Origin: Terracidiphilus sp.
GTDB taxonomy: Bacteria; Acidobacteriota; Terriglobia; Terriglobales; Acidobacteriaceae
Length of the DNA: 64,000 nt
NCBI GenBank assembly: GCA_035262585.1
Contig: DATFSO010000150.1
Span: 2,760 to 66,759, forward strand
Reading direction: 5' to 3'
A program made the position numbers and the translations under genes. The notes under the pieces were generated by a model. The model worked only from the letters and a program-made list of their open reading frames with translations, had not been told where the DNA came from and did not search any database. Below are positions 23,909 to 49,246 of the stretch, piece by piece (the stretch's first letter is position 1; the number at the start of each line of letters is the position of its first letter).

Positions 23909-24804
23909 TTCGTCAAGTCCAGATCACGGCCGGTCAACCGCCGGAACGCTTCAAGGTATTTCTGCAGTGTACGCTCCACAACGTCATTCGGAAGACTCGG
24001 CGCCGGAGCCTGCTTGTTCCAGTGAATGCTCTCCAGGTAATCTCGTACGAACTGCTTGTCGAAACTCGGCTGCGGGCCCCCCGGCCTCCATGCCTCTGCC
24101 TCCCAGAATCGCGAAGAGTCCGGCGTCAGCACTTCATCGGCCAGCACGATGCCATCCTGCGTCCTGCCGAATTCGAATTTCGTATCAGCCAGAATCAACC
24201 CCTTCGACTCCGCGTGCCTGCTCGCCCTTTCGTAGATCGCCAGCGTCAGCCTGCGAAGTTCATCTGCATCGTCCTCGCCGACCAGTCTCTCCACGGACTC
24301 GAACGGAATGTTCTCGTCATGTTTTCCGTCCTGGCTCTTTGTTGCCGGTGTAAACAGCGGCTCCGGCAACTGCGATCCATCCTGCAATCCGGCGGGCAGC
24401 AGGATTCCGCAGACTGTTCGGCTAGCCTGGTACTCCTTCCATCCCGATCCGGCAATGTATCCGCGCGCGACGCACTCCACAGGAAACATCTCTGCGCGCT
24501 TTACCAGCATCGATCGGCCCTCCAACTGGTCAGCATACTTCTGCAACGACTCCGGAAATTCGGCGACCTCGGTGGCGATCAGGTGATTGGGCACGATGCT
24601 CCGCATCATCTCGAACCAGAACAGCGAAATCTGCGTGAGAATCTTGCCCTTGCCCGGAATCCCTGTACCCAGCACGTGGTCAAACGCCGAAATGCGATCC
24701 GTCGCGACCATCAGCAGGGCGTCGCCAACTGCATACAAGTCGCGCACTTTGCCGCGGCCGATCAGAGGGGTCGCGCCCAAATCTGTCTTCAAAACGATTG
24801 TCAT
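23905..24804 (-). CDS. purC: SAICAR synthetase
   Basis: GKVRDLY, TDRISAFD, ILADTKFEFG, LADEVLTPDSSRFW. Confidence 0.96.
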   Translation of the reverse strand: MTIVLKTDLGATPLIGRGKVRDLYAVGDALLMVATDRISAFDHVLGTGIPGKGKILTQISLFWFEMMRSIVPNHLIATEVAEFPESLQKYADQLEGRSMLVKRAEMFPVECVARGYIAGSGWKEYQASRTVCGILLPAGLQDGSQLPEPLFTPATKSQDGKHDENIPFESVERLVGEDDADELRRLTLAIYERASRHAESKGLILADTKFEFGRTQDGIVLADEVLTPDSSRFWEAEAWRPGGPQPSFDKQFVRDYLESIHWNKQAPAPSLPNDVVERTLQKYLEAFRRLTGRDLDLTK

Positions 24805-24837
24805 GGGAAGACTTACCTCGGGTTTGTTGAATCTCCG

Positions 24838-24866
24838 ATTTTCTTGCCGGCGGCGCGCTTTGTCAA
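24838..24866 (-). promoter_or_regulatory. Putative purC promoter TTGACA-17-GAAAAT
   Basis: Perfect -35 with canonical spacing; the -10 lies 33 nt upstream of the start. Confidence 0.5.
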
Positions 24867-24935
24867 ACTTCCCGAGCCGCAAAATGACCATCAGGAAACC
24901 TAAGAGACGTTCATACCCCAAATTCCACAAAGACC

Positions 24936-24951
24936 TGTGACGGCTGTCACG
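24936..24951. promoter_or_regulatory. CRP/FNR-family-like site TGTGA-N6-TCACG
   Basis: 9/10 match to TGTGA-N6-TCACA. Confidence 0.35.
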
Positions 24952-24953
24952 GA

Positions 24954-25130
24954 GGCGGACTCCCAACTAAGCGAAACTCCATTTGTCACCAAGGTTCGGG
25001 AGTTCGTTAAGAAGCTTCCTTTGAGCCGGGTGGCACGAGGCAGCAGTGGAAAGGGGAAGCCGCGGCTAGCTTCGTTTCATAGGGATCGCCAGTAGCTGCG
25101 CACTACCGACCTCCAGTGCCGGCTACTGGC
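24954..25130 (+). ncRNA. Candidate structured small RNA (rod with large internal loop plus a 3' hairpin)
   Basis: Hand-folded closing stem, central bubble and apical stem. Several G-U pairs form only on the + strand. No credible ORF. Confidence 0.45.
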
Positions 25131-25164
25131 CCCCGCTCTTACTTCTTGTGATATTCAATACAAG

Positions 25165-25202
25165 CGCCTCCGAAGAGAAGACTGCCTTCGGAGGCGAATT
25201 TT
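25165..25202 (+). terminator. Intrinsic terminator-like hairpin
   Basis: Perfect 11-bp stem CGCCTCCGAAG/CTTCGGAGGCG followed by AATTTT. Confidence 0.6.
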
Positions 25203-25253
25203 CGTCTCGACACTTCCGCTTCGCCCCGCTTGAGCTTGTTGATCCTTGAACCT

Positions 25254-25288
25254 GGGGTGCCCCATGCATGACGAAGTCGTGGGTGGAA
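25254..25288. repeat. CCACCC..ATGGGGCACCC-type palindromic repeat
   Basis: Reverse complement ttccacccacgacttcgtcatgcatggggcacccc is related to 50498-50530 and 62624-62654. Confidence 0.6.
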
Positions 25289-25309
25289 GCAAGGAGCAGC
25301 CTCCTCCTG

Positions 25310-25642
25310 CTACCGTCCGGTCGCTGCCGCGGTTGCTTCGATCGTCGTCGCCAAATGCTTCGATTTCCGATAGACGTTCGCTACTGCCAGCGTCCACAAA
25401 GGCACGAAGTCCACTGCAGGCACAAGCTTGCCGAGAAACGACGGCAGAAACTCCCAGTGCCATCCGAGAAGATAGCTCAGCACGCCGGCAACAGCGAGAT
25501 CGAGGACGTCATCGGCGGGCGACGCGGCGCCTTCGATGAAGAGAGGAAAGACCGCGATCTGCAACAGGTCCGCGACGGCTGCTATCGCGAAAGCTGCTCT
25601 TATACGCGGCCCCGGAGATACGGTGAGGATATCTTTGGTCAA
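25310..25642 (-). CDS. Hypothetical membrane protein
   Basis: 110-aa hydrophobic ORF (WHWEFLPSFLGKLVP..DFVPLWTLAV) that reads as natural protein; start uncertain. Confidence 0.7.
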   Translation of the reverse strand: MTKDILTVSPGPRIRAAFAIAAVADLLQIAVFPLFIEGAASPADDVLDLAVAGVLSYLLGWHWEFLPSFLGKLVPAVDFVPLWTLAVANVYRKSKHLATTIEATAAATGR

Positions 25643-46746: not shown

Positions 46747-49149
46747 TTAGCTTGCAGACCAGCGCCAGTTGCGAATCTCCGGCAGGTCCTCGCCGTATTC
46801 CGAGACATAGAGGCGATGGCGCTGGATCTCTTCCGAGTACCATTGGCGCGCCGCATCGACCTCGCCTGCCAGGCGCGGTACTCGCGTGATCGCATCGAGT
46901 GCAAGCTGGAAGCGGTCGATGTTGTTGAGCACGCACATGTCAAAAGGCGTCGTCGTTGTGCCCTCTTCCTTATAGCCGCGCACGTGCAGGTTATCGTGAT
47001 TGTGCCGCCGATATGTGAGCCGGTGAATCAGCCACGGATATCCGTGGAAGGCAAAGATCGTCGGCGTCTTCGGCGGGAAAATTGCGTCGTACTGCTCGTC
47101 CGGCAAGCCGTGCGGATGTTCGGACTGCGGTTGCAAGGCCATCAGGTCGACGACATTTACCACGCGAATCTTCAGGTCAGGGACGCGCTTGCGAAGCAGC
47201 ATGACGGCGGCAAGCGCCTCCATCGTTGGCACGTCGCCGCAACAGGCTATAACAACATCGGGATCGCCGTGATCATTTGAGGCCCATTTCCAGATTCCCA
47301 ACCCCGTGGTGCAATGCGCAACTGCTTCGTCCATCGTAAGCCACTGCGGTGCGGGCTGCTTGCCGGCGACGATCAGGTTGATGTAGTGCCTGCTGCGCAG
47401 GCAGTGATCGGCGACCGAGAGCAGAGTATTGGCGTCGGGCGGCAGATAGATACGGACGATATCGGCCTTCTTGTTCAGCAGGTGATCGATAAAGCCCGGG
47501 TCCTGGTGCGAGAAGCCGTTGTGATCCTGACGCCAGACGAGGGAGCTGAGCAGGTAATTCAGTGAAGCGATGGGCTTGCGCCAGGACAATTGCCGGGTGA
47601 CTTTGAGCCATTTTGCGTGCTGGTTCACCATCGAATCGACGATGTGAATGAAGGCCTCGTAGCAACTGAAGAAACCGTGGCGGCCCGTGAGCAGATAGCC
47701 CTCGAGCCAGCCCTGACAGAGGTGCTCACTGAGCACTTCCATCACGCGGCCGGTCTCTGAGAGATCCTCGTCGACCGGGAGCGTTTCCAACATCCACGTC
47801 TTGCCGGTGCCGGTGATGACATCGTTGAGGCGGTTGCTGGCGGTTTCATCGGGGCCGAAGACGCGGAAGTTCTTCTGCTCTTTGTTGGCCTGCATTACAG
47901 CGTGCAGCAGCCGGCCCAGGACGCGAGTGGATTCGACATCTCTCTGGCCGCGGCCGTCAATTTTTACTTCAAAATCGCGGAAGCTTGGGACTACGAGCGG
48001 CTGCAGAAGGAGGCCACCGTTGGCGTGGGCGTTCATGCCCATGCGGAGACGGCCTTTGGGCGCAATGTCGGCATACTTGGATCGAAATGCGCCTTTTTCG
48101 TCGAAGAGTTCTTCCGGTTTATAGCTTCGCATCCAGTCTTCTAGCAAGCGAAGGTGTTCAGGTTTTTCCCGCAATTCTGTCATCGGTACCTGATGAGCGC
48201 GCCAGGTGCCTTCGACCGGTTTGCCATCGACAACTTTGGGCCCGGTCCACCCTTTGGGTGTTCGCATGATGAGCATGGGCCAGGCCGGCCGATCTGTTGA
48301 TCCGCCTTCGCGGGCTGCTTTTTGAATGTCCGCAATCCGATCGAAGATTTCATCGAAGACAGCGGCGGCTTTCTGGTGCATCGTCAGCGGATCGTCACCC
48401 TCGAGCGTGAAGGGCTCGTAACCGTAGCCGCGCATGAGGTTTTCCAACTCGGCATGCGGAATGCGTGCCAGGACGGTGGGATTGGCGATCTTGTAGCCGT
48501 TGAGATGAAGGATGGGAAGAACTGCGCCGTCAGTTGCGGGATTCAGGAATTTGTTGGAGTGCCAGCTTCCAGCGAGCGGTCCAGTCTCCGCCTCGCCATC
48601 ACCCACGACACAGGCCACCACGAGATGAGGATTGTCGAATGCTGCGCCAAACGCGTGCACGAGCGCGTAGCCTAGTTCGCCACCCTCATGGATGGAACCG
48701 GGCGTCTCCGGCGCAACGTGGCTGGGCACGCCATAGGGCCAGCTGAACTGGCGGAACAGGCGCTTCATGCCGTCGCGATTCTGTTCGATGTGCGGGTATA
48801 TCTCGGAGTAGGAGCCCTCGAGGTAAGTGTTCGCCACCATCGAAGGGCCGCCATGACCCGGACCGATCACGTAAATCATGTCGACGTTGCGCTCGCGGAT
48901 AATGCGATTCCAGTGGACATAAAGGAAGTTCAGTCCGGGTGTGGTGCCCCAATGGCCGAGCAGGCGAGGCTTCACGTCATCGAGGGTGAGCGCGCGCTCT
49001 AGCAGCGGATTGTCCTTGAGGTAGATCTGGCCGACGGAAAGGTAGTTGGCCGCACGCCAGTACGCGTTCATTTTTTCGAGGAGATCGGGACTGAGAGGGC
49101 CTTCGGGTTTTGCCGCGGCCCGGTTGATTTCGGTTGTCGCGCTGGACAT
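46747..49149 (-). CDS. xfp: Phosphoketolase (xylulose-5-P/fructose-6-P)
   Basis: [44 protein letters not shown]. Confidence 0.96.
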
Positions 49150-49246
49150 TAGGGGCACCTCGGAAGGGGTTTTCAGAGACAGTTCAGGCTAACAGCGAAG
49201 TATTAAAGGCGTGGTGATTGAAGTCACAAACTAGTAAGATGCCGCT

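Follow-up and report, generated by a model that had tools for sequence, protein, structure and literature searches.

The window analyzed here, a stretch of 64,000 nucleotides of the Terracidiphilus sp. contig DATFSO010000150.1 (assembly GCA_035262585.1), carries purC on the minus strand. The gene has its ATG at 24804, and its product was identified by Pfam as SAICAR synthetase. A gap of 506 nt separates the purC start from the end of a 110-aa ORF (25310-25642, minus strand), and this gap holds the small RNA (sRNA) gene described below. Of the 47 homologous loci examined, 44 had the sRNA gene ahead of purC-cvpA in divergent orientation, while its downstream flank was variable. In the present genome that flank is the 110-aa ORF, which is hydrophobic and convergent with the sRNA gene. 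It had no Pfam match and was seen in this genome only among the 47 loci.

The purC gene has a sigma-70-type promoter of its own, readable in the sequence as TTGACA-17-GAAAAT on the minus strand (24866-24838), as the initial annotation of this locus had held in arguing that the structured RNA is unlikely to be a purC leader. Within the purC promoter and leader (24805-24850, minus strand), the block GAAAATCGGAGATTCAG is conserved genus-wide. The purC -10 and the start of the transcribed sequence fall within this block, behind which comes the Shine-Dalgarno sequence GAGGAAG.

Distribution, covariation and fold of the RNA

Comparative sequence evidence indicates that the gap holds a real and conserved non-coding RNA gene on the plus strand, about 218 nt long, with a transcript predicted to run from G24985 to U25202. 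Searches of 60 relatives with blastn showed that 32 of 36 congeners each carry a single copy, 75-86% identical, and recovered none in the order's other family. Thirty copies were aligned with MAFFT, which revealed a sharply bounded conserved block, and a covariance model built from that alignment was run over 39 genera of the order. Outside the own genus its hits were confined to two sister genera. At least 119 loci emerged when 185,579 species genomes were scanned for the pattern. Among the matches listed, almost all were Terracidiphilus or other Acidobacteriaceae MAGs from peat, bog and soil, and the single Saprospiraceae locus listed with them was not confirmed by the covariance model. As judged from these comparisons, the sRNA family does not extend beyond Terracidiphilus and its nearest relatives among the Acidobacteriaceae.

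Several loci depart from the common arrangement. The sRNA gene is absent from two congeners (G003, locus L056, and G019, locus L057), and there purC abuts smc. In a third (G013, L058) the promoter and the first two hairpins, H1 and H2, are kept and the sequence then runs straight into the 3' end of smc, with the third hairpin (H3) and the terminator deleted. Second copies are carried by G140 (L048) and G135 (L049), the former copy lying away from purC. In nine further genera of the family, the sequence upstream of purC had neither the palindrome described below nor either of the two loop motifs of the RNA. The purC-smc spacers of family genera that lack the sRNA (L062-L069) share an A-rich tract followed by TTGACAG, with a (C/G)TGTGGAAAA block some 60-100 nt beyond it. 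These spacer blocks may mark a small transcript that occupies the same position but is unrelated to the sRNA.

The folding of the locus was compared with that of shuffled sequences, a check that the initial annotation had proposed. For 24954-25202 the plus strand gave z = -3.89, with none of 200 shuffles as good, and the minus strand gave z = -2.23. The predicted transcript (24985-25202) had a minimum free energy (MFE) of -99.1 kcal/mol (z = -5.48), and its MFE structure was the same as the consensus structure. RNAalifold applied to the 30 MAFFT-aligned copies gave a consensus of 47 pairs arranged as three tandem hairpins plus a GGG/CCC clamp, in which the 5' and 3' ends were not paired together. 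Its many conserved G-U pairs fit the plus strand only, which identifies this strand as that of the RNA and agrees with what had been proposed from the single sequence.

Covariation among relatives, also suggested earlier as a test, was extensive. Across 83 distinct sequences, in an alignment that was itself fitted to the model, standard pairs occupied 98.7% of pair cells and compensatory changes were found at 35 of the 47 pairs; the independent MAFFT/RNAalifold result agrees. None of 500 shuffles reached the values of the RNA, and slid structures gave only 28-51% standard pairs.

The 5' hairpin, H1 (24985-25034), begins at the predicted +1 and has a covarying apical stem, with compensatory changes at 5 of 5 pairs (helices 1-3), and an A-rich loop (GUAAGAA-like). 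H2 (25035-25075) combines a covarying stem with the invariant loop AAAGGGGAAG (25050-25059), which is Shine-Dalgarno-like (GGGGAAG), and GTGGAAAGGGGAAGCCGC within this hairpin was invariant in 30 of 30 sequences. In the H3 domain (25082-25134) the GGG/CCC clamp encloses a hairpin (25088-25130), and compensatory changes were found at 14 of 16 pairs of helix 7 and at all 3 clamp pairs. The invariant H3 loop, ACCGACCUCC (25105-25114), resembles an anti-Shine-Dalgarno sequence, and its ACCUCC core is identical to the anti-Shine-Dalgarno of 16S rRNA. Neither loop was paired in the consensus or in the MFE structure, as expected of conserved, accessible seeds. In the remotest homologues the GGGGAAGC and GACCUCC loop motifs are kept (GACCUCC in L047, for example) with the stems wholly rewritten.

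A U-rich linker (25135-25144) joins H3 to H4 (25145-25164), a small hairpin of the form CUUGUG...UACAAG that was seen in the alignment and in the MFE structure and whose loop varies in length. The RNA closes with an intrinsic terminator and U-run (25165-25202), the 11-12 bp stem occupying 25165-25196. The U-run is weak in this genome (AAUUUU) and comprises 5-8 U in relatives. Of 147 distinct homologous 3' regions, 131 have, on the same strand, a run of T4 or more immediately behind a hairpin whose energy is -12 kcal/mol or better. The apical hairpin, the second hairpin (25088-25130) and the terminator that had been drawn by hand are thus all present. The view that the region holds no credible ORF also stood: no reading frame was kept open in most homologues, and their lengths were spread over all three residues modulo 3. 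A new sRNA class on the plus strand had been one of two earlier proposals, and it is the one borne out, with a single-copy gene in more than 100 Terracidiphilus and Acidobacteriaceae genomes, covariation, its own terminator and no Rfam match.

The predicted promoter and its genome-wide motif

The initial annotation could not identify a plus-strand promoter. From the conserved sequence upstream of the RNA we infer a class II CRP/FNR-type promoter that has a weak -10, GA[C/A]ACT, and no -35. The predicted activator site is the palindrome TGTGA-CGGCTG-TCACG (24936-24951), whose center at 24943/24944 lies at -41.5 from the predicted start. TGTGA-N6-TCAC(G/A) was present in all 29 homologues found by way of the RNA body, with invariant half-sites and a varying center, and the half-sites were present in distant homologues as well. 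Between the palindrome and the -10 lies a promoter spacer of fixed length and variable sequence (24952-24972), outside the RNA. The -10 hexamer, GAAACT (24973-24978), stands at a fixed offset of 29.5 nt from the site center to its first base, a distance found in about 135 of 148 distinct promoters and in the distant homologues. The hexamer was GACACT in 77 of the 148, GAAACT in 49 and GAGACT in 6; variants included a near-consensus GATAAT (L042) and CACAAT (L047). Counting 6-7 nt from the -10 placed the predicted +1 at G24985, which is also the first paired base of H1. The predicted geometry is that of a class II CRP/FNR promoter, in which a site near -41.5 takes the place of the -35 and the -10 is fixed. 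The same geometry has been described for NtcA-activated promoters, and sRNAs under CRP, FNR and NtcA control are known (PMC6166021). Because the distance from the palindrome to the purC start is not constant, the palindrome is unlikely to co-regulate purC.

A further conserved block, CACAAA (24926-24931), lies about 10 nt upstream of the palindrome, with the consensus cACAaa in the 148 distinct promoters. One possibility is that it acts as an auxiliary promoter element.

The motif was examined across the genome, which is about 90% coding according to a rough gene caller. TGTGA-N6-TCAC occurred at 57 sites against about 23 expected, and 38 of these were intergenic. It ranked first of 30 permuted half-sites, the others giving 1-35 sites, 0-8 of them intergenic. 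Measured from the start of the site, nAnnnT hexamers peaked at offsets 37/38, which matches the class II offset; 17 of 41 site-gene pairs had one there. Genes behind motif sites, as identified by Pfam, include those for cytochrome bd subunit I (cydA), CcmF, NuoA, NuoB and HypC, together with a multihaem cytochrome c/b561 fusion, phosphoketolase, a cNMP-binding protein and a tandem Usp protein. Examples of candidate regulon sites in this genome are C13:49976, C148:9528, C166:12618, C69:50603, C73:900, C57:10595 and C78:43011 (contig:position).

A second motif site lies within the window itself at 49213-49228 (GGTGATTGAAGTCACA; TGTGACTTCAATCACC on the minus strand), 62 nt upstream of the phosphoketolase gene (46747-49158, minus strand), with TAGCCT at the class II offset. 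The 14-bp core of the sRNA promoter, GTGACGGCCGTCAC, recurs at just one other site in the genome, C116:4567. That site stands just upstream of an ORF that, judged by eye, resembles a zinc-type alcohol dehydrogenase/quinone oxidoreductase.

Four CRP/FNR-family genes were found in the genome. The one at C78:41139-41852 gave the best HTH match and encodes an N-terminal CxxCx8C cluster, an internal Cys and the recognition helix SRETVTR. An N-terminal Cys cluster with an internal Cys is a trait of FNR-type sensors, and the RE..R pattern fits recognition of TGTGA. Three motif sites surround this gene and the tandem Usp gene adjoins it. On these sequence features the FNR-like protein is the best candidate activator of the sRNA. 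The assignment is tentative, since two other factors also carry RE..R, making three in all. In Acidobacterium capsulatum cydA is up as O2 falls (PMC8407424), which makes oxygen or energy limitation the likeliest signal. Judged from the content of the regulon, the inducing signal is probably that of a respiratory/energy-limitation programme, with low oxygen most likely.

Function and competing readings

We consider it fairly probable, by analogy, that this RNA belongs to a new trans-acting sRNA family controlled by a regulator of the FNR/CRP type, with FnrS or CyaR as its functional counterpart. A CRP/FNR-family dimer bound at -41.5 would activate transcription near G24985, and the RNA would be induced together with the respiratory/energy-limitation programme, most likely at low oxygen. 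It would then act in trans with Hfq, its exposed C-rich loop pairing with the ribosome-binding regions of mRNAs and its G-rich H2 loop possibly doing the same. Such pairing would alter the translation or stability of the target mRNAs. The RNA would in this way form the post-transcriptional arm of the transcription factor's regulon, as FnrS and CyaR do in enterobacteria.

Like Hfq-type sRNAs, the RNA is non-coding and has its own predicted promoter and a U-tailed Rho-independent terminator. Hfq is encoded in the genome (PF17209, 100 bits, C44:21217-21405). CsrA was not detected there by PF02599 or by tblastn, and neither ProQ nor FliW was detected. This complement favors an Hfq-assisted base-pairing sRNA.

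We searched for targets by k-mer complementarity to the H3 loop and by RNAduplex against about 10,760 putative starts, and both gave noisy lists. The cleanest matches to ribosome-binding sites belonged to genes for a TPR protein, glutathione peroxidase, a SufS-like aminotransferase and a glyoxalase, which we treat as hypotheses only. The glutathione peroxidase match, the best in this genome, was not conserved in congeners. The 11-mer TGGAGGTCGGT, which is complementary to the H3 loop, was not enriched over its reversed control among 31 genomes when up to one mismatch was allowed. We rejected purC as a target of the H2 loop; CUUCCC stands beside its start codon in only 5 of about 34 sRNA-bearing genomes.

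Typical Hfq sRNAs are smaller and less rigid than this RNA of 218 nt with its long near-invariant stems, which counts against the base-pairing model, and the size and rigidity of the RNA would fit a protein-binding RNA about as well. An RNA that served as a decoy for a protein or for the ribosome would present its invariant loops and rigid stems as recognition surfaces and, once induced, would titrate its partner. We regard this as unlikely but worth weighing. In more than 80 species the loops, and much of the stems, do not vary, and stems conserved in sequence are more typical of protein-bound RNAs. The searches gave no conserved mRNA target, which is also in keeping with a decoy, and three GGA motifs are unpaired, of which the H2 loop holds two and the linker one. 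However, CsrA, the one known partner of GGA-loop sponges, is among the proteins that were not detected (with ProQ and FliW), there are only 5 GGA motifs where CsrB/Rsm RNAs have many repeats, and no candidate partner protein adjoins the gene, whose flanks are purC on one side and variable sequence on the other. A CsrA sponge of the CsrB/RsmY type in particular was rejected, as the RNA has 5 GGA motifs, 3 of them unpaired, and CsrA is absent by PF02599 and tblastn.

The palindrome might instead serve as an operator for a repressor, or form the first hairpin of an RNA of about 270 nt starting upstream, near CACAAA, and the logic of regulation would then be a different one. The start at G24985 is a prediction, GTGACGGCCGTCAC can form a 5-bp hairpin and CACAAA is conserved upstream, all of which would be compatible with this reading. 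The pattern of variation argues otherwise: the half-sites are invariant, yet some of the 148 distinct promoters keep them while carrying a C.A mismatch at the fifth pair of the would-be hairpin. Moreover, the motif is a genome-wide intergenic signal with a -10 peak at the class II offset, the stretch from palindrome to -10 behaves like a promoter spacer in its fixed length and free sequence, and no recognizable -35/-10 pair is present upstream of the palindrome. We consider a longer RNA or an operator rather improbable.

A more specific form of decoy can also be envisaged, in which the FNR/CRP-induced RNA would use AAAGGGGAAG and the anti-Shine-Dalgarno loop jointly to dock the 30S subunit or an unknown RNA-binding protein, or to clamp Shine-Dalgarno leaders. 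This is distinctly improbable. If true, such a dual-loop decoy would globally damp translation initiation under oxygen or energy limitation in peat Acidobacteria.

The initial annotation had described a 6S-like architecture and had offered a 6S paralogue, in which a closing stem, central bubble and apical stem would mimic an open promoter and sequester RNA polymerase. The core of about 150-190 nt is within the 6S size range, a closing stem can be drawn in the single sequence, and the own assembly has no RF00013 match elsewhere. That closing stem (24954-24975 with 25071-25090) is not kept in relatives. Among 29 of them standard pairs filled 55% of its cells, against 98.7% for the consensus, and only 0-39% in the outer GGCGG arm; most of its 5' arm falls in the promoter spacer, where length is fixed and sequence free. 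The purine-rich strand of the supposed asymmetric bubble proved to be the covarying hairpin H2, which had been missed because that stretch was folded as one side of the bubble. The consensus consists of three tandem hairpins.

Rfam gave no family match, either over the whole window at gathering score or over 24750-25350 at E up to 10, where the sole match, to mir-449 (E = 0.4), was a chance one; RF00013 in particular was unmatched at the locus. A full-length RF00013 match was present at a different locus in 11 of 18 congeners, alongside the RNA described here. In the own assembly 6S was found neither by RF00013 nor by blastn with the 6S loci of congeners. That assembly is 93% complete and in 173 contigs, which most simply explains the missing 6S, and its absence is probably an assembly gap. 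The RNA resembles 6S RNA in core length, in being highly structured and in its one copy per genome, but differs in having no conserved closing stem, no central bubble and no match to the covariance model. The unconserved closing stem, the presence of H2 and the occurrence of 6S elsewhere in congeners lead us to reject the 6S reading, which we regard as very improbable.

That the RNA is a cis-acting leader or riboswitch serving a gene downstream, or the mRNA of a small protein, is scarcely credible: the RNA is highly structured and conserved and a 52-aa ORF (24937-25095) overlaps it in the own sequence, but it ends in its own terminator, the downstream gene varies between genomes and is convergent here, the ORF begins within the palindrome, ahead of the predicted transcription start, and homologues keep no frame, with Rfam riboswitches unmatched.

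Comparison with known systems and significance

The trans-acting sRNA that we favor can be set beside several known regulators. The Rfam models of FnrS, CyaR and Spot 42 had no match at the locus, and the resemblance to them is functional only. Like FnrS (RF01796, Enterobacteriaceae) and its gonococcal analogue, the RNA is encoded by a stand-alone gene with an intrinsic terminator. A passage in PMC3032703, citing Durand and Storz 2010, describes a class II FNR site at -41.5 for E. coli fnrS and an analogue in gonococci; a site of this CRP/FNR-family class, at the same position, is predicted here. As with FnrS, the gene is set within a respiratory-gene regulon in an organism with Hfq available, oxygen control and targets being only inferred for this RNA. 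FnrS is of about 108-122 nt, whereas the present RNA is of about 218 nt with four hairpins, and by Rfam the two have no similarity of sequence or structure. The FnrS site is of the type TTGAT-N4-ATCAA, in contrast to the CRP-like TGTGA-N6-TCAC found here, and the phylum is a different one.

For CyaR (RF00112) and Spot 42 (RF00021) of E. coli, transcription is set by a CRP-family protein that binds TGTGA-N6-TCACA, and both extend the CRP regulon after transcription (PMC6166021), a role that we propose for this RNA too. There is no homology between them and this RNA by Rfam. Unlike the CRP of these systems, the candidate regulator in Terracidiphilus has an FNR-type Cys cluster and is not an obvious cAMP receptor. 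Firmicutes sRNAs of the RsaE/RoxS type pair with Shine-Dalgarno regions through C-rich, anti-Shine-Dalgarno-like hairpin loops and are tied to respiration/redox regulators. The present RNA is likewise a structured sRNA that presents such a C-rich loop, for which pairing is only predicted, but its sequence is unrelated and it has a single CCUCC loop together with a G-rich loop.

Acidobacteria are among the most abundant bacteria of soil and peat, and to our knowledge almost nothing has been reported on their RNA regulators. In a 2022 survey the whole phylum had four annotated sRNA families (PMC9029176, Table 1). As far as sequence comparison can tell, it is well supported that the family described here is new and its kind known, that of a transcription-factor-coupled regulatory sRNA. 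It is a well-supported RNA family with strong covariation in more than 100 genomes and is fit for an Rfam entry. The locus also yields a candidate regulator motif and a candidate regulon of cytochrome bd, NADH dehydrogenase, hydrogenase maturation, cytochrome c biogenesis, Usp and phosphoketolase genes. Together these provide a testable model of how Terracidiphilus may adjust to low oxygen or energy limitation in peat.
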